The position numbers and the translations under genes are program-made. DNA of 60,911 bases from a virus: IMG/VR virus record IMGVR_UViG_3300037193_002766, positions 1 to 60,911 of that record. One strand, 5' to 3'. Shown piece after piece: positions 9,050 through 60,911 of the stretch. The notes under the pieces were generated by a model. It worked only from the letters and a program-made list of their open reading frames with translations. It did no database searches and was not told the origin of the DNA. The stretch's first letter is position 1. Each line of letters opens with the position of its first letter.

Positions 9050-10654
9050 TCACGCCTCAGACTGCTCGCCGCCCGCGCCCTGCTCGTCCTCGCCCTGCTG
9101 TGGCCGGTTGACCACGATCTGCCCGCCCGTGAAGGTGTCCGGGTTCTCGACTGGCGGCCCTTCGATCGCCTTGACCTCCTTGTCGACGCGCGTCTTGTCC
9201 CAGTCCGGGTGGACCATTTCGACCTTCGTCCGTGTCGACACCGCGGCGGCCGCGTCGAGCAGCTGCACGGTGCGCGCCACCGTTTCGAGGTCCTCCGCGA
9301 CACCGTCTGGCCACTCGATCTCAGGCTCGTCGACGTCGGAGGAGCCTCCGAAGTGCGCGTAGTCCAGCTGCAGCAACACCGACGACATCTCGACTAGCGC
9401 CGGCGACCAGTAGAGCGTTTTGTGGCCACGCGTGAGGTAGGTGTCCTCTTGATCGGCCGCAACCTCGGTCGCGGTCTTCAAGCCTCCCTGGGTCTGGAAC
9501 CCGAAGGTCTCGCCGCTGTACCCACAGTCCTGCACGATCGCTTGGGACAGCTCACGCGCGGTGCCCAGGTGCTCCTCGAAGCGGATCGCGAACTGCGCCA
9601 CCGTGATCGGCGTTTGGCTGCCGGGCTGCGGCAGCATGCTGAGCGCCGAGTAGACCTCGCGCTCCGGATCCCACGACGCACCTCGACCGGGGCCGTTGTT
9701 CTGCAGGTACGCGTCCGGGACGACGATGCGTCCCTTGGCGAGCCGAATGTCGCGGAGCAGCGACGTCCACACTTCGTCGAGCGCATCGAGCATCGGCTCC
9801 GCGCCGGCGATGTCCGCGCGGCCGAGCTCGCACGCGGCCGGGATCTTGCGCCAGTACTTGTTGGGCCTCATGTTGGGCACGTACCGGACCGTCAGATCCT
9901 TGATCAGGGTCTCGATGCGGTCGCCGTCCTCGACCACGTCCACGTACTCGGTGGTCTCCGCATGCTCGTTGAGCGGGATCCTGCGGCCGAGATGATCCGG
10001 GGTGCCTTCGTAGAGGCCGTGCAGGATCGCGCCCGGTTCGTGGCGTTCGAGGTGCCGGATGACCCGGTTGCCGTCGTCCTCCAGCACGCGCCAGAACGAG
10101 CACGCGGTGAGCTTGCCGCCCTGCCACTGTGGAACCGCTGCGTCCGCGTAGGTGGTGTGCATCCACGGCTTGTTGGAGATGTCGGAGTTCCACAGCGCCC
10201 GCAGGTACACGCCGCCGTGGCCGGCGCAGAGTTCGCCGGCTTCAAGGAGTGTGGCGCGGAAGCTGTGGCCGAGCAGTTCGTCGAGCCGGTCCTGGGTGGC
10301 CGTCTGTTTGGCCTTGAAGGTGGGCGGTTCGGAGAACAGCAGCTTCGACGACTTGGCCGCGATGTCGGAGGCGAGCGGGATGTGGAGCTTGGCGCGCTGC
10401 TCGCCGAGCGGAATCGGGGTACCCCAGAACCAGCGGGCAAGCCGGCCGACGACGCCACCGCGGTACTGGCTGGGGTGGTTGCTGAGCCGGTTGCGGCTGA
10501 CCGAGTCGTAGCCGTGGGCGTAGGTGCTGCCGTAGATGTCGGCTAGGTGGTCAGGGTCTCCGGTGTACCAGGCGTCCCAGGAGTCGATACGGGCGAAGAC
10601 GGGGTCGAGCTGGCGTGGTGGCCAGGCGGTGTTTCCGCCTTCGGGGAGCGGCAC
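9050..10654 (-). CDS. Portal protein
   Basis: 534 aa. GTG at 10654 preceded by GGGAG. Position after terminase. SPP1 gp6-like length. Confidence 0.85.
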   Translation of the reverse strand: MPLPEGGNTAWPPRQLDPVFARIDSWDAWYTGDPDHLADIYGSTYAHGYDSVSRNRLSNHPSQYRGGVVGRLARWFWGTPIPLGEQRAKLHIPLASDIAAKSSKLLFSEPPTFKAKQTATQDRLDELLGHSFRATLLEAGELCAGHGGVYLRALWNSDISNKPWMHTTYADAAVPQWQGGKLTACSFWRVLEDDGNRVIRHLERHEPGAILHGLYEGTPDHLGRRIPLNEHAETTEYVDVVEDGDRIETLIKDLTVRYVPNMRPNKYWRKIPAACELGRADIAGAEPMLDALDEVWTSLLRDIRLAKGRIVVPDAYLQNNGPGRGASWDPEREVYSALSMLPQPGSQTPITVAQFAIRFEEHLGTARELSQAIVQDCGYSGETFGFQTQGGLKTATEVAADQEDTYLTRGHKTLYWSPALVEMSSVLLQLDYAHFGGSSDVDEPEIEWPDGVAEDLETVARTVQLLDAAAAVSTRTKVEMVHPDWDKTRVDKEVKAIEGPPVENPDTFTGGQIVVNRPQQGEDEQGAGGEQSEA

Positions 10655-11610: not shown

Positions 11611-11864
11611 GCAGAACCTTGAGGTGCCGAAACGGCCACAGGGGTGAAGTCGAGGTAGTACTGCTGGCCGAGTTCGAACTGGACGTTCGGATTGTCGACC
11701 GTGATCTCCAAGCTGCCACTCGGCGTGTACTTGGCGTACCGCTGATCCTCCGGCAGGTCAGCGTCGTACACGGCCTGGAACCTGTAGGTCCGGACGCCGT
11801 CGGCGACGTTGTAGGAGCTGCGCGTCTCGCTGATGCACATGAACTTCGCGCGGGTTGTGATCAT
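11607..11864 (-). CDS. Hypothetical protein
   Basis: 85 aa, coupled to terL. Confidence 0.6.
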   Translation of the reverse strand: MITTRAKFMCISETRSSYNVADGVRTYRFQAVYDADLPEDQRYAKYTPSGSLEITVDNPNVQFELGQQYYLDFTPVAVSAPQGSA

Positions 11865-13135
11865 GCTGCTTCCTCCATCGGTTCCAGCAGCTGGCCACGC
11901 CAGACCGCTTCCGTCGTGTAAATCGCGTACCGGCCGGCGTCGAGCGAGTGGTCCTCCGCCTTGATCGGCGCGTCCTCGCCCTTCTCACCCTTCTTCGGGT
12001 CCCAGCTGTAGCCACCGATCTCCTCGGTCCAGCCCTTGCACGACCGGTGCACCCGGAACTGGTCCATCGCGATCAGCGACGACACCGTGCGGATGCCGTC
12101 CACCACCGCGTTGTTCGCCAACGTCGGCGTCAGCGTCTTGTCGGCGTACAGCTGCGTCACGAACGACTTCGCCGACGGGTCCACCACCGTCCACTCCGGA
12201 TGCACCCGGAGCCCGGTCAGCCACGCGGTGAGGCGCTGGCTGTACTCGGAGTCGGTCAGCGGCCGGTGCGAGGCCTTGCTGTCGTAGCGCCACTCGTGCG
12301 CCAGGTACAGGCGCTTGTCGACACCCAAGCCGAGCAGGAGTGCGGCGAACGGGTTCGTCGTGCCGTAGTCGATGCCCAGCGCGATCCAGCGGGTCATCGT
12401 GGGCAGGATGTCCACGATCATCTTGTCGGACCAGGCGTCGTACACGGCGCCCTCGGCGAGGCACCACTCGCCCTTGATGAACCGGCGGAACCACAACCCG
12501 ACGTACTGCCGCTTGAGCCGCGCAACGTAGGCCGGCTCCAGCGATGGGTTGTCGGCGAGCTGGAAGTGCCAGTGCCGCATGCCGACGTCGGCGGCCTTGA
12601 GGATGAAGTTCTTCCGCAGCCAGTGACCCGGACCGTCAGGGTTCGTCGTGGCCATCAGCTTCGCGCCCGGTACGCGGAGTCGGGACAGCAGCATCATCCA
12701 GAACCCGACCGGCACGAGCGTGGCCTCGTCGACGTACGCGAGTGCGATGGTCATGCCTCGGATGCGGTCCTCGGCGCGGATGTCGTTGGCGCCGATGATG
12801 TGGACGGTGCGGCCGAGGATCGTGGCGGTGTTCGCGCCGCGGGTGTGGTGGACGAACGCGGCGAACGGGCCGAACAGCAGCGGGGACTGCAGGGGCTCGA
12901 TCAGGTTCCGCTCGATGGTGTCCTTCGTCTTGCCCATGATCACGATCAGGCCGTGCGACGGGGCGACGGTGATCGCGATCAGGAACGCCAGCAACGAGGC
13001 GATCGTCTTGCCGGACGACACCGCGCCGGACCAGAGCGCGATCTGCGGCGTCTCCTGCGCGCGGACGACGCTGCGGATCTGCTTGGGCGACAGGATCTTC
13101 GTGATGCGCTGAAGATCAATCGTCGGCGGCATCAT
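11861..13135 (-). CDS. terL: Terminase large subunit
   Basis: 424 aa. Walker A GAVSSGKT. Nuclease-like C-terminal half. Follows the small subunit. Confidence 0.85.
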   Translation of the reverse strand: MMPPTIDLQRITKILSPKQIRSVVRAQETPQIALWSGAVSSGKTIASLLAFLIAITVAPSHGLIVIMGKTKDTIERNLIEPLQSPLLFGPFAAFVHHTRGANTATILGRTVHIIGANDIRAEDRIRGMTIALAYVDEATLVPVGFWMMLLSRLRVPGAKLMATTNPDGPGHWLRKNFILKAADVGMRHWHFQLADNPSLEPAYVARLKRQYVGLWFRRFIKGEWCLAEGAVYDAWSDKMIVDILPTMTRWIALGIDYGTTNPFAALLLGLGVDKRLYLAHEWRYDSKASHRPLTDSEYSQRLTAWLTGLRVHPEWTVVDPSAKSFVTQLYADKTLTPTLANNAVVDGIRTVSSLIAMDQFRVHRSCKGWTEEIGGYSWDPKKGEKGEDAPIKAEDHSLDAGRYAIYTTEAVWRGQLLEPMEEAA

Positions 13136-15753: not shown

Positions 15754-15999
15754 GTGCAGACATACTCAAGCCGGGACTGGCCGTACAGAGGGGAGCCCGC
15801 CGTGGCGTTTCGATGCTTGGCGACCGAATCGTGCAAGGACGGATACACCTGCCCCAGCATCTGGGTCGACGACGCCGACCCAGAGCACGTCGTGGTAGTC
15901 GGCCAGCTGATCGATCCAGGCCCAGACGTTCCGATGGCCGACGGCGAGCGCGCAGTGCGACTCCGCCGAGACACCGTCATCCGCGCCAACCTGGCGTAA
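15754..15999 (+). CDS. Hypothetical 81-aa protein, first gene of the plus-strand cassette
   Basis: GTG start after a lower-GC 217-bp spacer. No family recognised. Confidence 0.5.
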   Translation: MQTYSSRDWPYRGEPAVAFRCLATESCKDGYTCPSIWVDDADPEHVVVVGQLIDPGPDVPMADGERAVRLRRDTVIRANLA

Positions 16000-16004
16000 A
16001 GCGC

Positions 16005-16529
16005 ATGGACCTCAAGGATGTAGCTCGCCTCTTCGAGCAGTCAGCGAAGTCCGCGTTCCGTCTGGAGACGCTCCCGACCTACCTCGTGCCGCAGGAAGAA
16101 GACGCGCTCGCCGCATGGCGAGCCGGAGACCGGCGCCTGGACACACCCCAGGACAGCCCCTGGCTCGCCCGAATCAGGGCGAGCACCAACACCGGCTACC
16201 AATGGTCACGCGTCCACGTGCTGGACTACCCGCTCACCGAATACAGCGAGTTCGAGCTGTTTGGCTACCAAGCGCTGGTGGCGGCCGGCGAGCAGGTCTA
16301 CGTCGCAGACCGCGCCGACTCTCCCGAGTTGGAGCAGCTGCGCGAGGACTTCTGGGTCCTCGACGACGCCACCGTCATTCGCATGATCTACGACGCCAAC
16401 GGCCGGTTCCTGCAACCGGAACTCGTCGACGACATCGACCCCTACCTCGAAAGCCGGGACGTCGCGTTGCGTCACAGCGAGCCTCTCGCCGTTTACCTGG
16501 CGCGGCGCGAGCCGCGGCTCATCGCATGA
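16005..16529 (+). CDS. DUF6879-like protein
   Basis: 174 aa from ATG 16005 (MDLKDVARLFEQSAKSAFRLETLPTYL...). Motifs FRLET, RVHVLDYPLTEY and DFWVLDD match my recollection of DUF6879. Confidence 0.6.
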   Translation: MDLKDVARLFEQSAKSAFRLETLPTYLVPQEEDALAAWRAGDRRLDTPQDSPWLARIRASTNTGYQWSRVHVLDYPLTEYSEFELFGYQALVAAGEQVYVADRADSPELEQLREDFWVLDDATVIRMIYDANGRFLQPELVDDIDPYLESRDVALRHSEPLAVYLARREPRLIA

Positions 16530-17383
16530 ACCCCACGCCGGACGACAAGGCGAGGCTCGCGTCGACGCTCAAGAATCTCCGCGTCGACGCCGGACTCTCG
16601 ACGACCAGGCTCGCTGGCGTGTTGGGCTGGTCGCAGTCGAAGGTCTCGAAGACCGAGACAGGGCGCACCATGCCCGCGCCGGACGACGTGGCCGCGTGGT
16701 GCCGCCAGGTCAACGCGCCCGCCGGGGTGCGCGAGGAGCTGGTCGAGATCGCCGCAGCGGCCGCGGCTCAAGCCACGGAGTGGCGTCGCGAGCTGGCGCC
16801 CGGCCGTCGTCGCAAGCAGGACGACATCCGGCGCATGGAGCACAAGGCGTCGGTGATCCGGGTCTTCGCGCCGGACGTGGTCGTCGGTCTCGCGCAGACC
16901 AGGGCGTACGTGGAGAAGATGTTCCGGCTCGGCCGCAAGATCGGGCCTGTCGACGAACCGGCCGAGGATGTGATCAACGCACGTCTCGCACGCGCTGAGG
17001 TGCTCGACCGCACGGACAAGGTGTTCGTCCTGCTGATGGGCGAGTTCGCGCTTCGCCGGACCCTCATCCCCGCCGAGGAGATGCGGGCACAGATCCAGTG
17101 GCTGATCGAACTGTCACATCGGCCGAACATCGACGTCGAGGTCATCCCGTTCGCGGCCGAGGAGAAGGTGCACCAGTACAACGGGTTCGCGATCTTGGGT
17201 GACCCGGATGTCGACGATGAGGCGATCGTGCTCGCCGAGACTCTGACGCGCGGTCTGAGCATCCGTTCGAGTGAAGAGATCCGGGAGTACATCGAGCACT
17301 TCGACGCCCTTCGTGTCGCCGCTATTCGGGGCGATGAGCTGCGGGAATTCCTTCAGGAGGTCATCGACGGGCTCCCCAGGTGA
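16526..17383 (+). CDS. XRE-family HTH regulator with DUF5753 domain (WhiJ/Scr1-like)
   Basis: 285 aa, ATGA overlap with the upstream gene. HTH LSTTRLAGVLGWSQSKVSKTETG. DUF5753-like IRVFAPDVVVGLAQTRAY and FALRRTL. Confidence 0.8.
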   Translation: MNPTPDDKARLASTLKNLRVDAGLSTTRLAGVLGWSQSKVSKTETGRTMPAPDDVAAWCRQVNAPAGVREELVEIAAAAAAQATEWRRELAPGRRRKQDDIRRMEHKASVIRVFAPDVVVGLAQTRAYVEKMFRLGRKIGPVDEPAEDVINARLARAEVLDRTDKVFVLLMGEFALRRTLIPAEEMRAQIQWLIELSHRPNIDVEVIPFAAEEKVHQYNGFAILGDPDVDDEAIVLAETLTRGLSIRSSEEIREYIEHFDALRVAAIRGDELREFLQEVIDGLPR

Positions 17384-17484: not shown

Positions 17485-17712
17485 ATGAGCGGCCAGACAA
17501 CCTCAGGGCCGGCCGACGCCGAGCCCGTCTACACCCTCAAGGAGATCGCGCGGCCCTTGCGGGTGAGCACCGCCACCCTGCGGCGCCGGATCGCTTCAGG
17601 CGAGCTCGACGCGTTCCGGGTGGGACGCGGCCTGCGTGTCACCGAGTCGGCGCGCGACGCCTACTTCGAGCGGATCGGCTACAAGCCGCAGCGGGCGCAG
17701 GTGACGACGTGA
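17485..17712 (+). CDS. Excisionase-family (MerR-like) HTH DNA-binding protein
   Basis: 75 aa. YTLKEIARPLRVSTATLRRRIASGELDAFRVGRGLRV. RBS GAGGGAG. Confidence 0.7.
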   Translation: MSGQTTSGPADAEPVYTLKEIARPLRVSTATLRRRIASGELDAFRVGRGLRVTESARDAYFERIGYKPQRAQVTT

Positions 17713-18278
17713 CCATCACGGTGAACTGCGCGATCACCAGCGACGTCACCAGGCACCGCGCCTGGAACACCGGCAGCGGCAACGGCGAGGTGTGGCGCGT
17801 CTCCTGGAACCCCAGCCAGGCCTACACCCACGAGCAGGCCATCACCGCCATGTACATCGCCGAACTCGTCGGCAGCAACTACGCCAGCCCCCAGGACGGC
17901 ATCACCTCCCTGCCCGGCTGGGCGATCGAGCTCGGCCTGACCGCCAGCGACGCCGTGCGGCTCCTGCTCAACCACCAGTCCTGGGGCTACGCCGTCCGCC
18001 ACAGCACGCTGCCGTGGCAGCACAAGTCGCTCCTGCTGCTGCTCGGCACCTACCTGGACACCGACGGCACCTACCACCGCCCCGCCGCCAGCGAGATCTC
18101 GGACGTTGCCGGTCTCGGCGAGCAGGACACCGTCGATCTGCTCATGGAACTCGAAGCCGCGGGCTGGTTCTCCTGGCACACGGTCACCGGCACGGACGTC
18201 AACGGCCGATCGGCGCAGGACAGCTTTGCCCCCGTCCACACGGGACCCGCGCCTCCGCCACCCGCCGAGGCGATCTGA
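17709..18278 (+). CDS. Hypothetical protein (possible winged-helix C-terminal part)
   Basis: 189 aa, GTGA overlap with the upstream gene. Confidence 0.6.
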   Translation: MTITVNCAITSDVTRHRAWNTGSGNGEVWRVSWNPSQAYTHEQAITAMYIAELVGSNYASPQDGITSLPGWAIELGLTASDAVRLLLNHQSWGYAVRHSTLPWQHKSLLLLLGTYLDTDGTYHRPAASEISDVAGLGEQDTVDLLMELEAAGWFSWHTVTGTDVNGRSAQDSFAPVHTGPAPPPPAEAI

Positions 18279-18313
18279 CTACCCACTAGCCGACGAGCAC
18301 GAGGGGACACACC

Positions 18314-18508
18314 ATGCCGAACCTGGACGAGATCAGCGACGAGGAAGCCGAAGCCGGCGCGCTCACCGCCATGTGGGGACAGCTGGAGGCGTTCGCCGCC
18401 CGCTCCGGCCTGGACCTGCGGGCGGAAGTCCTTGAGGACCTCACGGACGAGGAATTCGCCGAGGCGCAGCGGACCGTCGCGTTCATGCGCGCAGGGTTCG
18501 AGGGGTAG
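18314..18508 (+). CDS. Hypothetical small acidic protein
   Basis: 64 aa, RBS GAGGGGA. Confidence 0.55.
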   Translation: MPNLDEISDEEAEAGALTAMWGQLEAFAARSGLDLRAEVLEDLTDEEFAEAQRTVAFMRAGFEG

Positions 18509-18512
18509 CGCC

Positions 18513-19016
18513 ATGCCGGTCACCGCTACCCAGGCCGCACAGCTCGCGCCCGGCTGGGAGACCACCTCGTACCACGAGGCCGGCCACGCCCTCGCGGCGC
18601 TCGAACTCGGCTTGCCGGTGCACCAGGTCAGCCTCCGCTACGAGCGCCGGTTCCTGCGATGGGCCGTGGTCGGGCAGACCGCGGTCGCACCGCCCGGTCA
18701 CACGATCGAGGTCGACGAGACCCGCGAACTGCTGTTCACCGTCGCGGGCATCGAGGCCGAGGCGCAGTGGCTCGTCTGGCGCGACAACATCGACTTCCCG
18801 CAGGAACGCCGCCTGGCCGAGTCGAACCCGGTGAACCAGGCCGGGGACATGGCCGAGATCGCAGCGTGCCTGCCCGCCGCCACCTTCACCTACGCCGAGG
18901 CCCAGCAGTGGGCGTTCAACCTGTTCGCCATCCACTGGCACACCGTCTCGACCATCGCCCAGCGGCTCCGCGACACCGGGCACATCACCGGCCGCCAGCT
19001 CGCCCACCTCGCCTGA
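18513..19016 (+). CDS. Stand-alone FtsH-like (M41-type) HEXXH metalloprotease domain
   Basis: 167 aa from ATG 18513. TSYHEAGHALAALELG matches the FtsH protease-domain signature. No AAA+ module. Confidence 0.65.
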   Translation: MPVTATQAAQLAPGWETTSYHEAGHALAALELGLPVHQVSLRYERRFLRWAVVGQTAVAPPGHTIEVDETRELLFTVAGIEAEAQWLVWRDNIDFPQERRLAESNPVNQAGDMAEIAACLPAATFTYAEAQQWAFNLFAIHWHTVSTIAQRLRDTGHITGRQLAHLA

Positions 19017-19033
19017 GCAAGGAGACCAGCGCC

Positions 19034-19237
19034 ATGCCCCGAACTCTGCCTTCCGAGTTCACCGCTGACGAACTCGACGCGATGCGCGACTGGCTCGACG
19101 ACGCCTGCCGTCAGTCCCTCGCCGACGAGGGCTTCACCGTTGACGACCTCGACGACGAGGACGTCCTGATCGGCATCAACACCCACCACATCGACGGCAT
19201 CCGGGGATTCCTCAACCTCTTCCACGACGAGGACTGA
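19034..19237 (+). CDS. Hypothetical small highly acidic protein
   Basis: 67 aa, RBS AAGGAGA, Asp/Glu-rich. Confidence 0.55.
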   Translation: MPRTLPSEFTADELDAMRDWLDDACRQSLADEGFTVDDLDDEDVLIGINTHHIDGIRGFLNLFHDED

Positions 19238-19264
19238 CCCAGCCCCGAGCAAGGAGACCCGCCT

Positions 19265-20149
19265 GTGAACACCGCCCAGCCTGTCAAGCCGCCCCGAGCA
19301 CCGGGCTTCTGGTGGGCCCTCGCCGGCTTCGGCCTGGGCTCCCTCGTCTCGGTCGGCTTCAACCTCCAGTCCGCCTGGCTCCCCGCCGCCGAACACGGAC
19401 CGAACTGGTCGCCGAGCCTCGCTTCCCAGGCCGCCGCCGTCGTGTGGCCGCTGACGCTCATCGTCAGCGTCGAGGTCCTCTCCCGCGTCACCTGGCCCGA
19501 CGGCAACGGCTGGAAGCTCGTCCGCTTCAGCGGCATCCTCGCCGTCGCCCTCGGCTCCGCAACCATCTCCTACGGCCACATCTACGAGGTCCTCATCGCC
19601 TGGGGCTACGACCGGCACCAGGCGATCGTCGGCCCGCTCGTCGTCGACGGCCTGATGCTCATCTCCGGCTTCGCCTTGGTCGCGCTCGGGAGGGCCGCCC
19701 GCGACGCGCTCCACGTCTCCCAGGAGGCCGTCGCCGAGCCTCCCGCAGTGCCCTCCCGCACCCCTGTCGTTCCTCGCCGCCCCGTCCCCTCAGGTGGCGA
19801 GGAACCCGCCGTCCCGGTCGCGTCCATCCCCCCGACCCCCGCGACCGGGACGGCACCTCAGGAGGCCTCCCAGCTTCGTCCTGAGGAGGCCTCCCAGGCG
19901 GCTCCCGAGGAGGCACGCGCCGCCCTCCATCTCGTGCAGACCAGGCGCGTCAGGAAGACCTCCCGGAAGACCTCCCGCACCGACGTCAGCAACGAGGACG
20001 TGTTCGCCGAGATCGCCTCCTACGCACGGGAGCACGACGGCGACCTCCCGACCGCGAACTGGCTGAAGAACAAGCTCACGATCGGCGCCTCCCGCGCCAA
20101 GAACCTCCTCACGGAGTACACGAACGACAAGCAGGAGGCCCTGGCATGA
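19265..20149 (+). CDS. DUF2637-like integral membrane protein
   Basis: 294 aa with 4 TM segments. ISYGHIYEVL...GPLVVDGLMLISGFALVAL fits DUF2637, a family typical of actinomycete conjugative elements. Confidence 0.7.
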   Translation: MNTAQPVKPPRAPGFWWALAGFGLGSLVSVGFNLQSAWLPAAEHGPNWSPSLASQAAAVVWPLTLIVSVEVLSRVTWPDGNGWKLVRFSGILAVALGSATISYGHIYEVLIAWGYDRHQAIVGPLVVDGLMLISGFALVALGRAARDALHVSQEAVAEPPAVPSRTPVVPRRPVPSGGEEPAVPVASIPPTPATGTAPQEASQLRPEEASQAAPEEARAALHLVQTRRVRKTSRKTSRTDVSNEDVFAEIASYAREHDGDLPTANWLKNKLTIGASRAKNLLTEYTNDKQEALA

Positions 20150-21849
20150 GCTGGCCCCCCGAAGGCTCGCAGCCGCCCAGCCCACCCCGCGTCACGCCCG
20201 CACCGCGGCCGCGTCCGGAGCGACCCTCACCGCCTGCCTCACCTGGTGAGGCGAAGGTGAAACCGCAGGCCAACACACCTGCGGCGCAGCCGCCGCAGTT
20301 CGGGCACGACGGCATCGACCCGCGCCGCGCCGCCCTGATCCTCGGCCTGCCGCTGCTCGCGATCGCAGGCACGCTGCTCTTCCTGTTCGCCTCGCCGCTG
20401 GTGTGGTGGATCGCCGTCGGCGTGGCCGTGGCGGGCGTGGCGGGAGGTGTGTTGCTGCGCCGCTCCGGGAGGGCGCGGGGTGCTCTCGGCCGTCTGCCCG
20501 GTGCCGGGAGGCTGTCGGCCGGGTTGCGGCGTGCCGCGAACGGGAGGTTCGCCCGGTCACCTCTCGGGAGGGTGGTCAACCGCGCGCTCGGGAGGCGACC
20601 GGCGGCCGCGTCAGGAGGCTCCTCGGGAGGGCCCGCGTCCCGACCGAAGGGGCTCGGCGGGAGGCTGCGGTCGATGCTCCCGTCGTGGGCGGGAGGCACC
20701 CGCGCGAAGCGTCCAGGAGGGCCGGGAGGCACCTCCTCGGGAGGCAAGCCGGGAGGCAAGCCGGGAGGCAAGCCGGGAGGCCGGCTGCGGTCGATGCTGT
20801 CCCGTCTCAAGCCGGGCGGGAGGCGTCCCGCTGGCTCCTCCGGCAGCCTGACGGGAGGCCGTTCCGGAAGGGCGGGAGCCGCCTCCCACGGCGGCTCGAA
20901 GCCGAAGCCTGGGAGCCTCCTCGGGAGGGCGTCCCGCACCGCCGGGAGGGCCGGTCGCGCGGTCGGGTCGAAGCTGTTCGGCATCCGCCGCCCCACCGCC
21001 CCGGCGGGCACGGGCGGCTCCAGCAAACCGAAGGGCAAAGGCAGGACTCCCGCCGGCGGCTCCGGCAACGGCTCGACGCTGGAGCTGGGCGTGGTGTGGA
21101 CCGGCGTCGGCAAGGCCGGCCGCCTACTCGGCCGCGGCCTGGGCGGCCTCGTCGGGCGGTTCCGGAACCGGAAGCACACCGACGAGGACACCGACGACTT
21201 CGATCCGGACTCGACCTACGAGATCGGCATCGAGGGTGAGGTCGTCAACGGCAAGCACACCGACAGCGAACTCGCTGAAATCGCGAAACAAGCGAAGAAG
21301 CTGGCCAAGAAGCGCGCGAAGAGCGCCCCGGTGTGGCCGAACGTCGACCTCGACACCCTCCCGCCCCCGCCTGCTCCCACGCCACCGCCTACTCCGCAGA
21401 ACTGGCCGGACTACGACGTCGACGACTACGCCCCCACGCCGGAGCAGCCGCCCAAGCAGTCGTTACCGGCCGAGCGGGACCACGACCCGCCGCCCTCACC
21501 ACCCGTCTCACCCACGCCTCACCGTGAGGCACCCCGCATCACCAGCACAAACGGAGGAAAAACGATGGCCGTCTCACCCACCAAGTACAACGACCTGATC
21601 ACCACCGCCACCAGCCGCACCCAGGGCTGGCAGGCCGCCGCCGACGCGTTCCGCCGCGACGCCACCGAGCTGGACGAGAAGGCGAAGGAGCACGACAACG
21701 CCGCCGCAGTGTTCGAGCAGGCCGGCAACCACGCGGCCGCCGAGGAACGGCGCGACGAGGCCCGCCAGCTTCGCGACGACGCCAACACGTGCCTCACCTA
21801 CGCCGGACGGATGCAGGAGAAGGCCAACAACGAGGTCTCCGCCGCCTGA
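20146..21849 (+). CDS. Membrane-anchored Pro/Gly/Arg-rich low-complexity protein (Spd-like by context)
   Basis: 567 aa, ATGA coupling. TM region GLPLLAIAGTLLFLFASPLVWWIAVGVAVAGVAGGVLL. GGKP x3 and a duplicated GGRLRSML motif. Coiled-coil-like C terminus. Confidence 0.6.
   Translation: MSWPPEGSQPPSPPRVTPAPRPRPERPSPPASPGEAKVKPQANTPAAQPPQFGHDGIDPRRAALILGLPLLAIAGTLLFLFASPLVWWIAVGVAVAGVAGGVLLRRSGRARGALGRLPGAGRLSAGLRRAANGRFARSPLGRVVNRALGRRPAAASGGSSGGPASRPKGLGGRLRSMLPSWAGGTRAKRPGGPGGTSSGGKPGGKPGGKPGGRLRSMLSRLKPGGRRPAGSSGSLTGGRSGRAGAASHGGSKPKPGSLLGRASRTAGRAGRAVGSKLFGIRRPTAPAGTGGSSKPKGKGRTPAGGSGNGSTLELGVVWTGVGKAGRLLGRGLGGLVGRFRNRKHTDEDTDDFDPDSTYEIGIEGEVVNGKHTDSELAEIAKQAKKLAKKRAKSAPVWPNVDLDTLPPPPAPTPPPTPQNWPDYDVDDYAPTPEQPPKQSLPAERDHDPPPSPPVSPTPHREAPRITSTNGGKTMAVSPTKYNDLITTATSRTQGWQAAADAFRRDATELDEKAKEHDNAAAVFEQAGNHAAAEERRDEARQLRDDANTCLTYAGRMQEKANNEVSAA
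20739..20782 (+). repeat. 12-bp tandem repeat gggaggcaagcc x3.6 (encodes GGKP repeats)
   Basis: Read directly in the sequence. Confidence 0.9.
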
Positions 21850-21851
21850 CG

Positions 21852-21881
21852 TCTCACCTCTCACCTCACCCCCGTCTCACC
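21852..21881 (+). repeat. Cluster of four CTCACC motifs upstream of the translocase gene
   Basis: tctcacctctcacctcacccccgtctcacc. Motif copies start at 21853, 21860, 21865 and 21876. Confidence 0.85.
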
Positions 21882-21905
21882 GCCCTGACCTGCAAGGAGG
21901 TCGTC

Positions 21906-23954
21906 GTGTCGCTCAAGTCCTTCACCATCCTCGCGGGTCTGGGCGTGACGGTGCTCGCCGCCGTCGTCCTCGCGCTGTTCCGCACGTACATGGAGGGGCC
22001 ACCGCTGTGGGCGATCGCGGCCGGCGGCCTCGGTGTGGTCGCGCTGGCCGCATGGTGGTGGCACGGCGAACTCGGCCGCGGCGCCAACTACGTCGAGTTC
22101 TCCAGCGAGGCCCGCCGCTGGATGGCCCGCATGATCACCGCTGCGGTGCTGGTGCACTGCGTGTGGCTCGTGTGGACCCTCGCCGACCTGGACTCGTGGA
22201 GGGCGCATGCGCTGCGGCTGATCGGATTGTCGCTGCTGGAGTGGGTGGTGGCGCTGGCGTGGGACCACCGCCTCACCCACCTCCTGCCGCAGGCCAAGCC
22301 CGCCGCCGAGGTCGAGGTGTACCGGCCGACGCTGGTCGCCAACAACGAGCCACGGCTGCAGCCCGCGGACGAGCGGATGCAGCTCATCCTGCAGCGAGGC
22401 GGCTGGCCGTATGTGCTGGTCACGAAGGTGTGGATGCTGCCGGACGGACACAAGGGGGCGACCTTCGAGTGCCGCGCGCTGTCCAAGAGCCTCGCATCCG
22501 AGCTCTCCGGCAAGGAGGTGAGCACGGTGAAGGCGATCGCGCCCGGCGACGAGGAAGACCTCGCGATTGCCGCCGAGGAAGAGCTGGGTGTGGACCTGGA
22601 GACCAGCTGGGTGCGCATTCAGCCGACCAGACGTCCCGGCCGGGTGCTGGTCACCATCGCCACCGAGGACATCTTCGCGAAGCCGCTCCCGTACCAGCTG
22701 GTCACCACGCTCGCGGACCCCGCCGAGCCGATCGTGCTCGGCTCCCAGGTCCACGGTGACCCTGCCGCGTTGAACGTTCGTCAGCACGGCGTGATCTGCG
22801 GTCCGACCGGATCCGGCAAGACCGGCCTGGTCAACGTGCTGTTCGCCGAGCTCACCCGCAGGCCAGGCCGGATCTTCGTCTGCGGCGTCGAGAAGATCTA
22901 CGACCTGGTCGGCCAATGGCTCGACGTCCACCTCGACACCGACAACGACCTGCCCATCACCGCGGTCGTCGGCATCGACGACACCCTGCAGCTGCTGGCC
23001 GAGGTGTACTACGAGGCCCGCCGCCGGCAGAACCTTGAGCACCACGAGCGCGCGAACCTGGAGCCCTGGTACATCGTCATCGAGGAAGCGCCTGCGGTCC
23101 TGAACAACAACGAACGCCAGATCGAGATCGAAGGCCGCAACTACAACGCATCAGCGCTGGTAGCGCACCTGGACCGCACGATCCTGTCGGTCGAGATGTA
23201 CATGAAGAAGCTGGCCCAGGAGTACGACAACGCGATGTTCGGCGACAGCGCGGCGTCGATCAAAGGCAACTCCGGCTACAAGATCCTCATGCGGTCGCAG
23301 TCCGGCGACGAGCGGTCCCGCGCGTTCGGCCGGGGCTACGCCGCGCTGCGCGACCTCAACCACCCCGGCGAGATGTACATCAAGGACAACGCCGACCCCT
23401 ACGCCGCGAAGTGCCGCTACATCAACGAGATGCACGCCAACAAGAAGCGCCTGCACGAGGGCGTTGACATCGCCACCGTGTCGCTCGCGCGATCTGCGCT
23501 GGTCAAAGCACGCGCCAAGGGGCCGTTGTCGCCGTGGATGGCGGCGTTGCCGACCCGCATGACCCGCAGTTACCGCGACTACCTGCAGGGCAAGTGCGCC
23601 CTGCCGATGGATGCGGGAACCAGCCGCATCGCGATCGAGGCCGTCGACGCCGGCACGCTGGTCGACAAGGCGATCGCCGATTTGGAGGCGCAGCTCGACG
23701 AGCGAGACGCGCGTCGCCTGCGCGTGGTCGACAACGAGCCCGCCAAGCCGCGGATGCGGGACTTCATCGCCACCACGCTGGCCGACAACACCGACGGGAT
23801 GACCACCGACGAGGTGCTGTCCGCGGTGCTCGCCGCCGGCTACGAGCAGGCGTCGAAGTCGAGCGTGGAGAACGCGTTGACCGCGCTGCGCGGCAAGGGC
23901 CGGATCCGGTCCGTCGACGGCCCCTCGGGCCGCCGCGTGCACCAGGCCGCCTAG
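21906..23954 (+). CDS. FtsK/SpoIIIE-family DNA translocase, TraB/TraSA-like
   Basis: 682 aa from GTG 21906 (RBS AAGGAGG). N-terminal TM segments. Walker A GPTGSGKTG and Walker B YIVIEEAP. C-terminal winged-helix-like tail. Confidence 0.8.
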   Translation: MSLKSFTILAGLGVTVLAAVVLALFRTYMEGPPLWAIAAGGLGVVALAAWWWHGELGRGANYVEFSSEARRWMARMITAAVLVHCVWLVWTLADLDSWRAHALRLIGLSLLEWVVALAWDHRLTHLLPQAKPAAEVEVYRPTLVANNEPRLQPADERMQLILQRGGWPYVLVTKVWMLPDGHKGATFECRALSKSLASELSGKEVSTVKAIAPGDEEDLAIAAEEELGVDLETSWVRIQPTRRPGRVLVTIATEDIFAKPLPYQLVTTLADPAEPIVLGSQVHGDPAALNVRQHGVICGPTGSGKTGLVNVLFAELTRRPGRIFVCGVEKIYDLVGQWLDVHLDTDNDLPITAVVGIDDTLQLLAEVYYEARRRQNLEHHERANLEPWYIVIEEAPAVLNNNERQIEIEGRNYNASALVAHLDRTILSVEMYMKKLAQEYDNAMFGDSAASIKGNSGYKILMRSQSGDERSRAFGRGYAALRDLNHPGEMYIKDNADPYAAKCRYINEMHANKKRLHEGVDIATVSLARSALVKARAKGPLSPWMAALPTRMTRSYRDYLQGKCALPMDAGTSRIAIEAVDAGTLVDKAIADLEAQLDERDARRLRVVDNEPAKPRMRDFIATTLADNTDGMTTDEVLSAVLAAGYEQASKSSVENALTALRGKGRIRSVDGPSGRRVHQAA

Positions 23955-23955
23955 C

Positions 23956-24046
23956 TCTCACCTCACCTCTCACCTCACCACCCGCACACGCTCATGTGTG
24001 CAGGTAGGGACGTGTGTCCGAGGGTGAGGTGAGAGGTGAGGTGAGA
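23956..24046. repeat. Perfect 24-bp inverted repeat built from CTCACC units (43-nt spacer)
   Basis: tctcacctcacctctcacctcacc at 23956-23979 is the exact reverse complement of 24023-24046. The spacer holds a GCACAC/GTGTGC mini-hairpin. Starts 2 nt after the translocase stop. Confidence 0.9.
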
Positions 24047-24074
24047 CGCCCAACCCAACCAGAAGGAGCACCCC

Positions 24075-24359
24075 ATGTACGACACCGACCAACGCGAACT
24101 GACCGAGGTCGAGCAGGCGGTGTACCTGACCTACCTGCAGCTCTCCGAATGCCCGCAAGACTGGATCCGGATCGCCCGCATCCACGAGCACCTCGACTAC
24201 CACCCCGACGACATCAGCGACGCCATCGTCTCCCTCGTCCACAACGGCGACGCCCACATCGCACCCGAGTCGAACACGAAGGTCCTCACCGCCGAAGACC
24301 ACGCCGCGGCGATCCGGGAAGGCAGCGAAGCCTGCCACCTGATCCTGTTCGAGGACTGA
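24075..24359 (+). CDS. Hypothetical protein
   Basis: 94 aa, RBS GAAGGAG. Confidence 0.6.
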   Translation: MYDTDQRELTEVEQAVYLTYLQLSECPQDWIRIARIHEHLDYHPDDISDAIVSLVHNGDAHIAPESNTKVLTAEDHAAAIREGSEACHLILFED

Positions 24360-24361
24360 CG

Positions 24362-24700
24362 ATGATCACCGCCAGAGCACTCCGACGCCATCTGACTGCG
24401 CTCGGCAAGGAACTAGCCGACAACTGCTACTGCGAAGACCTGAACTGCGAATCGGACCTGTACCACCCCTACGAAGGCACCGGCCTCGGCGTCCCCCCAT
24501 ACGGCCTGACGCTCGTCACCCCCGACGGGAAACTCGACGAGGCCCGCAACAAGGAGTACATCGCGTACTGGTGGGGCAAGAGCGCGCACCTGGACGAGGT
24601 CCAGGATCAGATCGACGTGCTGGATGACTGGGCTGAGATCCTCTGCGTGATCGAACATCGCACCGGCAGGTTCTGGCGTGGTACCGACTTCGCTGGTTGA
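24362..24700 (+). CDS. Hypothetical protein
   Basis: 112 aa from ATG 24362. The ORF-track N-terminal extension reads through the inverted repeat and is discarded. Confidence 0.55.
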   Translation: MITARALRRHLTALGKELADNCYCEDLNCESDLYHPYEGTGLGVPPYGLTLVTPDGKLDEARNKEYIAYWWGKSAHLDEVQDQIDVLDDWAEILCVIEHRTGRFWRGTDFAG

Positions 24701-24705
24701 TCCCC

Positions 24706-24746
24706 GTAGGTGTTGCCTGCCGGGGCAGGCAACGGACAACACCTAC
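24706..24746. terminator. Interrupted GC-rich hairpin after the 24362 gene
   Basis: gtaggtgttgcctgcc / ggcaggcaac...caacacctac. Confidence 0.5.
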
Positions 24747-24778
24747 CCGCTGGTGTCCGCTGCGGTGAGGCTGGACTC

Positions 24779-25201
24779 ATGAAGTTCACCCCGACGCGCC
24801 CCGACGCGCTCATCGTGACGCGCGGCTTCCTGCACCCGCTCCCGGACGGACTCCCGCCCGTCGACCTGGTCCTCGACCTGCGCCGGATCCTCGCCGACCC
24901 GGCGCACCGACCCGAGGGCGACATGCTCGACATGAACGGCCTGCAGCGCGAGGTGCGCGACTTCGTGCTCGCCACACCCGGTGCCGAGGCGCTGCTCGCG
25001 GGCGCAGTGCCGCTGCTGTCCGCAGTGGCCACGGCGAGGTTCGTCGTGGTGATGGTCGGCTGCTCCGGCGGGAAGCACCGCGCGCCGGCGATCGGCGCCG
25101 AGCTCGGCGCGCGTCTGCGGGCTGAGGGGCTGGTGGTGCCGGTGCGTCATCTGCACGTGCACCTGCCGCGCGTCGTCCGGCCGACGGAGCTCGCCGCCTG
25201 A
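24779..25201 (+). CDS. RapZ C-terminal-domain-like protein
   Basis: 140 aa from ATG 24779. VVVMVGCSGGKHRAPAIGAELGARL resembles the RapZ C-terminal IGCTGGxHRS motif. No P-loop domain. Confidence 0.45.
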   Translation: MKFTPTRPDALIVTRGFLHPLPDGLPPVDLVLDLRRILADPAHRPEGDMLDMNGLQREVRDFVLATPGAEALLAGAVPLLSAVATARFVVVMVGCSGGKHRAPAIGAELGARLRAEGLVVPVRHLHVHLPRVVRPTELAA

Positions 25202-25261
25202 GGGGGCATTCCTGGCGAGGTGTGCTTACGATGCCTGCACCCGTCAGCACTGGAGGTCGAC

Positions 25262-25477
25262 ATGCTCGTCGTGCGTGACCGCAGCCGCAACGGCAAAGCC
25301 GTCTCCTGGGGCACAGACCACGTCCGGATGCGCGAGATCGAGGCACTGGACCGCAACTTCGAGGCTGTCCCGGACTTCGGTGCCGCTCGCTACTACTGCC
25401 ACGTCAAGCGGCAGGGCCTTGCCTGGGAGCACCCGTACGACAGGGACGCCCGCCTGTACGCCGAGATCAAGCCCTGA
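25262..25477 (+). CDS. Hypothetical protein
   Basis: 71 aa from ATG 25262, preceded by GGAGG. Confidence 0.55.
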   Translation: MLVVRDRSRNGKAVSWGTDHVRMREIEALDRNFEAVPDFGAARYYCHVKRQGLAWEHPYDRDARLYAEIKP

Positions 25478-25707
25478 TGCCCGCGCTGGTGCGCCTCGAC
25501 CGGGACGACCTCGACGCCCTGGCCGCATGGCTCCGCACCCAGATCGACGACGACAAGGCCGGCCGCGCGCACGCCGCGATGCTCCAGGCGATCACACCGC
25601 ATCTGCACCAGCACTCGACCGCCGGCCAGCTCGCACGCCACACGCTCATGCAGCTCGGCTCGATCTACGACGACCAGCCCGGCTACCGCGAAGAGTGGCG
25701 GCCCTGA
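25477..25707 (+). CDS. DUF6221-like protein (short paralog of 38929-39372)
   Basis: 76 aa. C-terminal DDQPGYREEWRP matches ADRPGYRAEWRP in the other copy. Confidence 0.6.
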   Translation: MPALVRLDRDDLDALAAWLRTQIDDDKAGRAHAAMLQAITPHLHQHSTAGQLARHTLMQLGSIYDDQPGYREEWRP

Positions 25708-25756
25708 CAACGACAGCGGCCCCCGAACCGAGCTGGTTCGGGGGCCGCTGTCGTTG
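25708..25756. terminator. Bidirectional terminator hairpin (22-bp perfect stem, 5-nt loop)
   Basis: caacgacagcggcccccgaacc-gagct-ggttcgggggccgctgtcgttg, between convergent genes. Confidence 0.8.
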
Positions 25757-25757
25757 T

Positions 25758-26701: not shown

Positions 26702-27256
26702 CTACACCACCGCGTCCAGCTCAGCGCGCAACCCGTCCACGACCGCAGTCCGGTACGAGTAGAGCGGGAACGGGCACGGACCGTAGAGCAGCTGCATCCC
26801 GATGCCCGCGAGAGCGAGCGCGTCGGCGGTGTCGTTCTTGATGCCCTCCACCGCCGGCCACATGCGCGCGGCCGCGAGTATCATGTCGTCCTTGTCGGCG
26901 TTGCCCTTGCCGGTCGCCCACTTCTTCGCCGACGCCGGCGGCACGACGAGGATCGGAGCCGGGTAGTGCTCGATCGCGTCGTAGACCTTGCCCCAGAACC
27001 ACGAGCGGTCGTGAGACGCCGGCGACTTCGAGTTGAACGACGGACCCTCCAGCACGACCAGGTTCGCGGGCAGCACGTGCTCAGTGATCGCATGGGCGAG
27101 GTCGCGGAGCCGCTTCGAGCGCATCGGCCACGTGTCGGTCAGCTTTCCGACGGACTGCACGCGATGGATGTCGGTGACGACGCTGGTGTCGATCCAGGTG
27201 ATGCGGGAAATGCCGGTGCTGGTGAGCGAAAGATCCAGCCCAATCACTGTGGTCAC
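26702..27256 (-). CDS. ruvC: RuvC-like Holliday junction resolvase
   Basis: GTG at 27256 (VTTVIGLDLSLTSTG...). Has the catalytic-type D near the N terminus, LEGPSF and NDTADALALA motifs. GTGA overlap with the HNH stop. Confidence 0.8.
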   Translation of the reverse strand: MTTVIGLDLSLTSTGISRITWIDTSVVTDIHRVQSVGKLTDTWPMRSKRLRDLAHAITEHVLPANLVVLEGPSFNSKSPASHDRSWFWGKVYDAIEHYPAPILVVPPASAKKWATGKGNADKDDMILAAARMWPAVEGIKNDTADALALAGIGMQLLYGPCPFPLYSYRTAVVDGLRAELDAVV

Positions 27257-27771
27257 TGTGCTGCTCCCTTCCTCTGGCGGTAACGCCGTGTGGCCTCGGC
27301 GGCACGGGCCTTCTGCTCCGGCGACTTCTCCCTCCCCTTCTCTCGATCGCACGCTCGACATCTCCGTGCGCCGCTGGGTCGGATGTGCGTGTTGGTCTCG
27401 TCGTAGGGGTGGTTCCGTGGGCAGTGCGTGATGGATCGCTGGCGGTTGCCGTTGACTTGGCCGACGATCCCTCGCAACGCGTTCTCGGAGGGCGTGACCT
27501 CCTCAAGGTGGCGCGGGTTCACGCACGCGGGCGTCCGGCATAGGTGGTCGGTGTGCATGCCATTCTCGGGCAAGCGGCCGTGCTCGAGCAGGAAGGCCAC
27601 GCGATGCGCGTTGACCATCCCGCCTGCTCGCCCACCCAGGCTGAACCTGCCGTAGCCGTTGTGGTCACGCTTCGCGATCCACAGCCAGCAGTCGTTTTCG
27701 TCGACCTTCTTCACCTTGGGCCAGAACCGTGTGGCGATCTTCGCCAGGTCCAGCCCGATGACAGTGGTCAC
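27253..27771 (-). CDS. HNH endonuclease
   Basis: 172 aa. NAHRVAFLLEHGRLPENGMHTDHLCRTPACVNPRHLE. The first nine residues duplicate the RuvC N terminus. Confidence 0.85.
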   Translation of the reverse strand: MTTVIGLDLAKIATRFWPKVKKVDENDCWLWIAKRDHNGYGRFSLGGRAGGMVNAHRVAFLLEHGRLPENGMHTDHLCRTPACVNPRHLEEVTPSENALRGIVGQVNGNRQRSITHCPRNHPYDETNTHIRPSGARRCRACDREKGREKSPEQKARAAEATRRYRQRKGAAQ

Positions 27772-38338: not shown

Positions 38339-38929
38339 ATGCTGAGGTGCGACGATGGCCGAATGGAGCGCTTCTTCGTGTCCCTGCCGGTCGACCCCTG
38401 CTCGTTGTTCGGCTACGACGAGGCTGGCGTTCGTACGTTCACGCGGAATGTCGAGCGGATGGCGGTCGAGGAGCTGGAGGGGCGCTTGGGCGTCGGTCAC
38501 CGTGAGCAGATCGCGGTGCAGTGGACGGCTCGTGTCCGCGGTGCGGGCGGGGAGATGGTCGAGGCGTTGTGGACGCCGCCCGCGTATGTGAAGGGGTGCG
38601 GGATGTTCACGTGCACCGCGTGGGTCGTGGATGAACCGCACCTGCTCGGTGGCGCGTTCGCGCTCTCGCCGGCCGAGGCCAGTAATCCTGTCGTCGTGAT
38701 GAGTGTTGCTCGGCTTGCCGATCAGCAGCTGGAGGTCGACGCGGCGAAGGCGGGCCAGGTGATCACGAGTCGCCCGGATCCGACGTGGACGATCGAGCGT
38801 CGGTCGGAGGACGGCGCGATCGCTGAGGAGCGTTGGCAGCCGGGGGAGTCCGTGGTGGGGGCTCTGCGCGTGGTTTATCGGGCTGAGGCGATTACGGCGC
38901 AGCTGCCGGCGGCATGGGTGGGGGCGTGA
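38339..38929 (+). CDS. Hypothetical protein
   Basis: 196 aa, plus-strand island next to the iteron field. Confidence 0.55.
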   Translation: MLRCDDGRMERFFVSLPVDPCSLFGYDEAGVRTFTRNVERMAVEELEGRLGVGHREQIAVQWTARVRGAGGEMVEALWTPPAYVKGCGMFTCTAWVVDEPHLLGGAFALSPAEASNPVVVMSVARLADQQLEVDAAKAGQVITSRPDPTWTIERRSEDGAIAEERWQPGESVVGALRVVYRAEAITAQLPAAWVGA

Positions 38930-60770: not shown

Positions 60771-60911
60771 GTGATGGGCACCGCACCGGAGAGGAACCGG
60801 GCGGAGATCGGGAAGGCGAGGTTGTTACGGGCGCGTGAGAGTTGGTCGGTAGACCTCGACGCGGAAGTTCACGACGTACTCGTGCCGGCCGTTGGCGTCG
60901 CGTCCCATGTA
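60771..60911. repeat. Terminal direct repeat, copy 2 (identical to 1-141)
   Basis: Read directly. Confidence 0.95.

Follow-up and report, generated by a model that had tools for sequence, protein, structure and literature searches.

Why does a temperate tailed phage carry a set of genes arranged like the DNA-transfer region of an actinomycete plasmid? The question is raised by IMG/VR virus record IMGVR_UViG_3300037193_002766, which was analysed over its whole length of 60,911 nucleotides (hereafter the window). An earlier note, made from the letters alone, had described a plus-strand block at 17485-25707 as the conjugation module of an actinomycete integrative and conjugative element (AICE) embedded in a tailed-phage genome, and every plus-strand open reading frame that it listed is present where it had been placed. 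The block centres on three genes, which encode a DUF2637-type membrane protein, a Gly/Arg-rich membrane protein and an FtsK-like DNA translocase, the last of these being followed by a conserved inverted repeat. In the known plasmid systems TraB is the only protein essential for transfer, and the Spd proteins are translationally coupled membrane proteins that form complexes with it (PMC4447253). We tentatively favour the reading, possible although somewhat short of probable, that the block is a phage-resident TraB/Spd-like double-stranded DNA (dsDNA) translocation module that may move the phage's own genome. Relatives of the locus are designated below by locus numbers (L001 and following).

The translocase, its membrane partners and the inverted repeat

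The translocase gene (21906..23954, plus strand) encodes a 682-aa protein with hydrophobic windows at residues 1-30 and 74-95, a Walker A motif (GPTGSGKT) at residue 299 and a Walker B motif (YIVIEE) at residue 389. Against the Pfam FtsK_SpoIIIE profile (PF01580) it scored 17.3 bits, below the gathering score of 24; the annotated TraB of plasmid pCQ3 likewise fails this profile (18.6 bits). The protein gave no PHROG match and no Pfam FtsK_gamma match, and sequence-only searches of the PDB, run with the single protein and with the family profile, returned P-loop-level matches only, so that fold comparison was needed. An AlphaFold2 model built from 28 homologues (predicted local distance difference test score, pLDDT, 80.4) comprises four long N-terminal helices, then the ATPase core and, at the C-terminus, a domain of helix-helix-helix-strand-strand order. 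The topology of this last domain in the model (residues 617-681) is that of a winged helix; profile matches to winged-helix proteins are only weak. When the model was compared with the PDB using Foldseek, the FtsK motor came first (E 1e-13), followed by TcpA of pCW3 (4e-12), EccC (9e-11)/EssC, HerA and VirB4; the top 20 were FtsK motor and TcpA entries, with E-values of 1e-13 to 1e-10 and target template-modelling scores (TM-scores) of 0.5-0.57. On the basis of the predicted fold, the translocase belongs to the FtsK/SpoIIIE-HerA superfamily and has an FtsK-type motor. The TraB/FtsK architecture that had been proposed for it, with a membrane anchor, an FtsK-fold motor and a C-terminal winged helix, is thus recovered in the model, the Foldseek comparison and the Walker motifs.

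Core gene 1 (19265..20149, plus strand) encodes a 294-aa integral membrane protein, recognised from its homologues and hydrophobic segments. The earlier note had called it a DUF2637 protein. The homology holds, as the N-terminal half shares 50-60% identity (E 1e-35 to 1e-26) with PF10935-bearing or DUF2637-named proteins; the Pfam assignment does not, the score of 19.7 bits being below the PF10935 gathering score of 22.8, and we therefore write DUF2637-type. A conserved domain of about 50 aa forms the C-terminus. The gene is kept in L015, L023, L024 and L025, and its positional equivalents in L026 (37 bits) and L028 match PF10935; searches of plasmids and of 50,697 isolated-phage records gave no match. 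Core gene 2 (20146..21849, plus strand) starts within the stop codon of gene 1 (ATGA) and is kept in L002, L003, L015, L023, L024 and L025. From composition and hydropathy, its 567-aa product is membrane-anchored, as had been noted: a Pro-rich N-terminus is followed by a hydrophobic hairpin (residues 60-105), a cationic Gly/Arg/Ser-rich tract (about 106-340; 27% Gly and 15% Arg over residues 100-340), an acidic Pro-rich linker and a helical C-terminal domain. The Spd-like features observed in the two membrane partners are their position beside the translocase, their membrane segments and the cationic tract. Within the Gly/Arg-rich tract, three exact 12-nt tandem copies at 20733-20785 (GGCAAGCCGGGA register) encode GKPG repeats, a stretch that could be variable in length.

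Two nucleotides past the translocase stop codon begins a perfect 24-nt inverted repeat (23956..24046; arms 23956-23979 and 24023-24046, spacer of 43 nt). Its arms, TCTCACCTCACCTCTCACCTCACC and the complement, each consist of two copies of TCTCACCTCACC and are made of (TC)TCACC units; the spacer holds a conserved core, CAGGTAG(A/G) (CAGGTAGG in the window), around which the remaining spacer and the flanks diverge. The same arms follow the translocase stop codon in all eight relatives examined, at 79-36% protein identity. Across these nine loci, the window included, the left arm lies 2-8 nt after the stop codon and the spacer measures 43 or 44 nt. The arm sequence is nearly invariant, rather than co-varying, down to 36% protein identity. 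In L002 (12013-12056) and L026 (10134-10176), the most distant of the close relatives, the spacer core is reverse-complemented at the mirrored position (16-23 instead of 21-28; window spacer, 23980-24022). A core that is kept but exactly mirrored fits a double-stranded DNA site easily, is hard to reconcile with an RNA loop and suggests a function at the DNA level; the whole element, or the segment bounded by the inverted repeat, may have flipped in evolution or may actively invert.

A second repeat site, TCTCACC TCTCACC TCACC cccg TCTCACC, lies between gene 2 and the translocase start (21852..21885, plus strand), its units running in the orientation of the left arm of the downstream inverted repeat. 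Such an upstream site, with three to four units in a single orientation, is found in all relatives of at least 52% identity and is absent from L002 and L026. The 12-mer GGTGAGGTGAGA occurs at the translocase flanks and nowhere else in the window, and a genome-wide signal like the FtsK-orienting polar sequences (KOPS) was rejected on this ground. When 185,579 species genomes were scanned with the 23-mer arm, four single, unrelated matches were returned (Prevotella, Verrucomicrobia, Gemmatimonadales); the exact motif is therefore not in representative genomes.

More remote members of the family keep the architecture of the site and use other units: TCACACACACA units around a CGCAGGTCAC core in L030, ACAAAC-type units in L031, and TCACCTCAC combined with a CTCTCCCTCTCC stem around CAGGT in L028. 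A device for translational sequestration, suggested by the resemblance of the arms to anti-Shine-Dalgarno (TCACCTC) and Shine-Dalgarno (GAGGTGA) sequences, was dropped because remote members use the unrelated TCACACACACA and ACAAAC units. The putative recognition helix of the translocase, S-x-S-S-x-[ED]-N-x-L, is conserved wherever the repeat motif is conserved and differs in the members with another motif, a co-variation that supports a site resembling the clt sites of plasmids. In the clt sites known so far, each plasmid has short repeats of its own, both direct and inverted, which lie at the 3' end of tra or just beyond it and are read by the C-terminal winged helix (PMC3583192). That of pWTY27 comprises 16 bp inside traA and 159 bp downstream, with 7-bp TGACACC repeats, that of pJV1 has 9-bp repeats, and the 8-bp repeats of pSVH1 are bound through helix alpha-3 (PMC3583192). 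We propose that the phage inverted repeat is a putative recognition site of the translocase, a clt-like candidate.

Genomic contexts of the family

A word-indexed search of 5.8 billion proteins found only 29 relatives of the translocase. By scanning 1.84 billion cluster representatives with a hidden Markov model, we obtained 302 family members (E <= 1e-3), of which 98 scored better than 1e-30 and were mostly full length; a metagenome scan with the protein profile added one locus, which was already in the set. The genomic contexts examined were six phage-like contigs of 41-61 kb (L001, L002, L015, L023, L024 and L025), a prophage with a Mu-like portal in a 442-kb contig (L026), a 14-kb NCBI contig (L003) and, for a cultured relative, the genome of Actinosynnema sp. 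NPDC023587 (L028). In a tblastn matrix the DUF2637-type, Gly/Arg-rich and translocase genes always occurred together; the HEAGH, HTH_17 and downstream small genes were variable. The survey of related prophages that the earlier note had called for thus returned the trio, together, across a phage and prophage clade. These three genes, a translationally coupled trio, are the conserved core and a stable part of that clade.

Isolated phages yielded no close family member: among 50,697 records, the sole tblastn match of the translocase was the FtsK/SpoIIIE protein of Saccharomonospora phage PIS 136 (E 1e-5). The best match in a viral structure library (E 5e-27) was an unnamed protein of 853 aa, the same length as the PIS 136 FtsK protein. 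The early region of some relatives holds a second large protein, of 639 aa in L001 (7113-9032, minus strand) and 627 aa in L023 (16313-18196); in L001 the C-terminus of this protein matches Pfam FtsK_gamma, and the window has no clear equivalent. The DUF2637 protein had been presented as one part of the hallmark apparatus of conjugation, but in itself it is not such a hallmark: a close homologue of its N-terminal part is encoded in the Saccharomonospora cyanea chromosome (L029, 3.99-4.02 Mb) by a typical prophage that has an integrase, an HTH_17 gene, a DnaC-like gene, a Prim-Pol, a terminase and a portal but lacks any gene resembling FtsK. Prophages thus commonly carry DUF2637 genes independently of a translocase.

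Distant relatives of the motor alone are found on actinomycete plasmids, namely on Streptomyces plasmids of 86-99 kb, on pAmyja1 of Amycolatopsis japonica and on pCQ3, where the relative is annotated traB and adjoins traA. The comparison of Tra sequences covered pCQ3 TraB and the FtsK-like protein of the Streptomyces longwoodensis linear plasmid NZ_CP107738. In hhalign, the translocase aligned with the NZ_CP107738 protein at 93% (E 2.5e-7). On that plasmid the gene order is DUF2637 protein, 702-aa protein, translocase, which is the order of the phage trio, and the 702-aa protein begins with an acidic N-terminus and a membrane segment, continues with a long cationic tract rich in Gly and another membrane segment, and ends in a helical C-terminus. 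After pCQ3 traB, CTGACA repeats occur in both orientations; the 294-aa and 567-aa proteins have no detectable similarity to the neighbours of pCQ3 traB. On sequence grounds, the module is not assignable to a characterised TraB family. The profile and structure comparison proposed in the earlier note supports the FtsK fold of the translocase and a remote homology to a plasmid FtsK-like protein, and leaves the link to pCQ3 TraB marginal.

The plasmids with the nearest plasmid-borne relatives (H4-H9, H18 and pAmyja1, in the size class of pZL12, pCQ3 and pSLE1) may be plasmid-phages themselves. They also carry phage-like genes, which on pAmyja1 (L004, NZ_CP008954) encode a GH25 lysozyme and a large LamG-domain protein.

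The rest of the block and the phage that carries it

The plus-strand block proved longer at its 5' end than had been described, its first genes, for a DUF6879 protein and an XRE-DUF5753 regulator, placing the start near 15754-16005 rather than at 17485; five small genes extend it past the translocase, and its end at a hairpin stands. The first clear gene of the block encodes the DUF6879 protein (16005..16529, plus strand; Pfam PF21806, 143 bits) and the next an XRE-type helix-turn-helix (HTH) regulator with DUF5753 (16526..17383, plus strand; Pfam HTH_31 and DUF5753). Together with a small upstream ORF they form, at 15754-17383, a regulatory cassette of the WhiJ/Scr type, typical of filamentous actinomycetes. 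Where the window has the XRE regulator, L002, L023, L024 and L028 have a GntR/UTRA regulator, divergent or upstream. Transcription of the block opposes the lytic genes, as does that of the integrase and repressor genes, and this orientation, together with the dedicated regulator, suggests expression outside the lytic programme. A scan of the block for promoter and terminator consensus sequences was uninformative.

The excisionase-type HTH protein that had been noted next (17485..17712, plus strand) is an excisionase/MerR-type HTH_17 protein above the cutoffs of both Pfam (HTH_17, 35.3 bits, cutoff 27) and NCBIfam (TIGR01764, 36, cutoff 28.8), with a match to phrog_66; its gene is kept in L015 and L023. 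It could be the Xis of this genome, for which it is the only candidate, and could equally be a regulator. The following gene (17709..18278, plus strand), whose start overlaps the previous stop codon by 4 nt, encodes a 189-aa protein, a possible winged-helix protein in the earlier note, with no family match in Pfam, PHROGs, NCBIfam or PADLOC, and it was not found in the relatives. The small acidic proteins of the earlier list were read directly from the translations: one of 64 aa (18314..18508, plus strand), with no family match in Pfam, PHROGs or NCBIfam, and one of 67 aa (19034..19237, plus strand), also without a family match.

Between these two lies the stand-alone HEAGH protein (18513..19016, plus strand), in which the motif is invariant among four homologues. 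A profile of these four sequences matched only FtsH protease domains in the PDB (E 1.5e-3), mainly around the motif. Pfam gives nothing for the window protein, and the L002 homologue scores 20.3 bits against Peptidase_M41, below the threshold of 29.9. From these sequence comparisons, the HEAGH protein is probably an FtsH-like (M41) metalloprotease domain that is accessory to the module, its gene being present in L002, L023 and L024 and absent from L015 and L025.

Downstream of the inverted repeat, and all on the plus strand, are genes for a 94-aa acidic protein that is often linked to the module (24075..24359; tblastn matches in L024 and in L002, where the gene is on the opposite strand), a 112-aa protein (24362..24700; kept in L003, L015 and L024), a stand-alone RapZ C-terminal-domain protein (24779..25201; Pfam PapZ_C, 55 bits; kept in L003, L015 and L024), an 85-aa protein (25220..25477; kept in L001, L003, L015 and L023) and a 76-aa protein that matches the C-terminal part of DUF6221 (25477..25707; Pfam, 31 bits; kept in L001, L023 and L025). 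The window has two DUF6221 genes, this fragment-like one that closes the block and a full-length one among plus-strand genes at 38914-39372 (77 bits). The hairpin at the block end (25707..25757), between convergent genes, had been given a 22-bp stem; it has a perfect stem of 23 nt with a 5-nt loop and probably terminates transcription in both directions.

The window, which is the whole of a JGI contig, holds the complete genome of a temperate tailed phage of siphovirus type with an integrase. Its first and last 141 nt are identical (1-141 and 60771-60911), which makes the assembly circular and gives 60,770 bp as its true length; the contig may represent a phage genome that is circularly permuted or else a circular episome. 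A gene map based on G+C at third codon positions (GC3) has about 95 genes, most of them on the minus strand, and phage gene identities were taken from PHROG and Pfam profiles. The virion, lysis and integration genes attributed to the carrier were recovered. PHROG profiles matched the large terminase (11861-13135), portal (9050-10654), major head protein (5426-6484), tape measure (56607-59672), endolysin (49902-50963), RecE/RecT (43374-45142) and a RuvC-like resolvase (26702-27256, minus strand), as well as a primase/polymerase-like protein and a DNA methyltransferase. The tyrosine integrase gene (48216-49454, plus strand) lies 24 kb away from the translocase gene, and an XRE repressor-like gene is found at 46895-47422 (plus strand). 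No tRNA was found in the window, and the roughly 40 window proteins scanned included none for partition or plasmid replication. Since the homologues of the DUF2637-type protein come from Saccharothrix, Saccharomonospora, Lentzea, Kibdelosporangium and Actinophytocola, the host is probably a filamentous actinomycete of the Pseudonocardiales. The resolvase and the adjoining HNH endonuclease (27253-27771, minus strand) share their first nine residues, VTTVIGLDL, as if the insertion of an HNH homing-endonuclease gene at the 5' end of the resolvase gene had led to a duplication of the resolvase start.

Possible roles of the module and its known counterparts

If the block is a translocation module that moves the phage genome, hexamers of the translocase would sit in the membrane at hyphal walls or septa, and their winged helices would read the (TC)TCACC repeats on excised or replicating circular phage DNA. 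ATP hydrolysis would then drive this DNA into the next compartment or into a mycelium in contact with it. An Spd-like channel, and the contact with the DNA or the cell wall, would be provided by the DUF2637 protein and its cationic membrane partner. Once in the recipient, the integrase would establish the prophage. The outcome would be a virion-independent spread of the prophage through a filamentous host. It is doubtful, though conceivable, that the element is in this sense a self-transmissible temperate phage, that is, an integrating tailed prophage which either leaves as a virion or is pumped as dsDNA to hyphae or mating partners. Equally doubtful is a further part of that proposal, that the clade represents a widespread and overlooked second transmission route for phages of filamentous actinomycetes.

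Several observations weigh against a transfer function. Every clear genomic context of the family is a phage or prophage, and no bona fide AICE or small conjugative plasmid was found among these contexts; the earlier note had counted clustering with phage-specific FtsK-like proteins unrelated to TraB as evidence against its own proposal, and these contexts go half-way towards it. The translocase family is very divergent and falls below the Pfam threshold, and the hhalign comparison with pCQ3 TraB reached only a marginal 46%. DUF2637 proteins occur in prophages without any translocase. A GntR regulator keeps traB under control on plasmids (PMC4447253), and the window has no GntR regulator of the Kor type, an XRE-DUF5753 regulator being present instead. 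The single-sided arm substitutions seen among the relatives are all compatible with G-U pairing on the plus strand, which makes a role as an RNA hairpin possible. The passage of a circular dsDNA through a hexameric pore, moreover, is a difficulty even for TraB itself, and we know of no demonstration that naked DNA of an integrating prophage spreads between hyphae.

Some of these points fit a role in segregation, in which the translocase would pump phage DNA, either episomal or replicating upon induction, across closing sporulation or vegetative septa so that every spore or compartment receives a copy, as SpoIIIE, FtsK and SffA do for chromosomes. The best structural matches are indeed septal FtsK motors, an FtsK architecture is combined with a predicted sequence-reading winged helix and its own cis site, and all contexts are phage or prophage. 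We nevertheless consider this role unlikely: with an integrase present, and partition and plasmid replication genes not seen among the proteins scanned, a prophage in its integrated state would be passed on along with the chromosome anyway; the site is single and local rather than an oriented genome-wide signal like KOPS; and two extra membrane proteins in a plasmid-like synteny fit a Tra/Spd apparatus better. The orientation of the block against the lytic genes, shared with integrase and repressor, its own regulators and the frequency of DUF2637 proteins in prophages without a translocase would also suit lysogenic conversion or exclusion, with a membrane ATPase that blocks or expels incoming phage or plasmid DNA or disturbs host FtsK or septation, and with the repeat as an operator or attenuator. 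This is improbable in our estimate, as PADLOC found no known defence family in the block and its one match, to mad8, is limited to the P-loop stretch; an operator would be expected upstream, yet the conserved inverted repeat is at the 3' end, and, whether an XRE or a GntR regulator stands upstream, it changes together with the translocase family. Hardly credible is the capture of an AICE or plasmid fragment as a recent passenger of one phage. The plasmid-like synteny and a slightly higher G+C at 19-22 kb are what such a capture would leave; however, neither an integrase nor a replication gene lies inside the block, its flanks share no direct repeats of at least 12 nt, a DNA-level search with the 8.2-kb block found no match in phages or plasmids, and the block persists throughout a phage clade (36-79% protein identity), in which some members have another head module.

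The remaining alternative concerns the inverted repeat itself, which as a stable 3' hairpin might stabilise, terminate or process the translocase mRNA, the translocase then having no sequence specificity. The hairpin is predicted at about -72 kcal/mol, the arm changes in L002, L024 and L026 give G-U pairs (three events, a weak argument since the probability by chance is about 1 in 8), and both arms of L026 carry a matched 3-nt insertion. Against these stand arms that are nearly invariant instead of co-varying down to 36% protein identity and that are made of tandem short units in every family member, upstream copies in a single orientation that cannot form a hairpin, and an asymmetric core kept in either orientation, although inversion would change an RNA loop completely. 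Moreover, the stem is not followed by a T-run, a distinct terminator hairpin lies beyond it in L002, and a search of Rfam with the hairpin matched no family, giving only sub-threshold generic hairpin models such as miRNA precursors. An RNA-level function of the repeat is accordingly a low-probability explanation in our judgement, and a phage-resident translocation module with a clt-like site is the reading that we retain, as tentatively as above.

What is new in this locus is a divergent translocase family, a fixed three-gene module in integrase-bearing tailed phages and a conserved, co-varying inverted-repeat site. The novelty is lowered by precedents, namely pZL12, the SpdB2 homologues on phiC31 and VWB and the FtsK-like genes in Streptomyces phages. 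The SpdB2 homologues were earlier proposed to help phage DNA spread (PMC4447253). pZL12, to our knowledge the one Streptomyces plasmid-phage with a transfer locus and itself little known, is cited as a virion-making element of Streptomyces sp. 9R-2 whose transfer locus comprises one major tra gene with two genes next to it (PMC3583192, PMC4487206). Should the translocation reading be true, virion and conjugation-like transmission would coexist in one integrating element, which would change models of phage spread, host range and lysogen frequency in mycelial bacteria, and the translocase with its 91-bp site would be a compact protein-DNA pair for studying substrate choice by FtsK-type motors. 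The relative in Actinosynnema sp. NPDC023587 makes the question experimentally approachable.

Among known systems, the TraB/TraA-clt pairs of pSVH1, pIJ101, pJV1 and pWTY27 share several features with the phage module: only one FtsK-like ATPase, about 680-770 aa long, which is anchored in the membrane and ends in a winged helix (a predicted one in the phage protein); a cis site whose short direct and inverted repeats overlap or follow the 3' end of the gene and whose sequence is specific to each protein; translationally coupled membrane proteins beside it, Spd on the plasmids and Spd-like in the phage; and a GntR-type regulator, the last of these here in relatives and replaced in the window by XRE. 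They differ in that their similarity to the phage translocase is at the superfamily level only, that the phage carrier is 60.8 kb with a full set of virion, lysis and recombination genes, and that the phage site has the strict form of a 24-nt inverted repeat, its spacer fixed at 43 nt and its core conserved. FtsK and SpoIIIE, with KOPS and the SpoIIIE recognition sequences (SRS), provide the best structural match and likewise combine an N-terminal membrane domain, a motor and a C-terminal winged helix, which in them reads a short G-rich motif; in contrast to them, the phage has one local site and no genome-wide skewed motif, and its motor is phage-encoded with two dedicated membrane partners.

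The closest parallels in carrier type are found among phages and plasmid-phages. FtsK-like genes of PIS 136 and of the Streptomyces phages Jaresh, AndoPrime and Geonosis, and the SpdB2 homologues of phiC31 and VWB, are also phage-borne and in filamentous hosts; in those phages, however, the gene has been noted singly, with neither an assigned role nor a described cognate site. AICEs, of which the window is not one, are compact elements of about 9-24 kb with adjacent int/xis, rep and tra genes and no virion genes, whereas the window is 60.8 kb with terminase, portal, capsid, tail and lysin. As the window may do, pZL12 and its relatives pCQ3 and pSLE1 combine virions with a conjugal transfer locus, and distant translocase homologues lie on Streptomyces plasmids of 86-99 kb; but pZL12-type elements, which as autonomous plasmids measure about 85-90 kb, carry ParAB and RepA, whereas the window has a tyrosine integrase and, among its proteins scanned, no partition genes.

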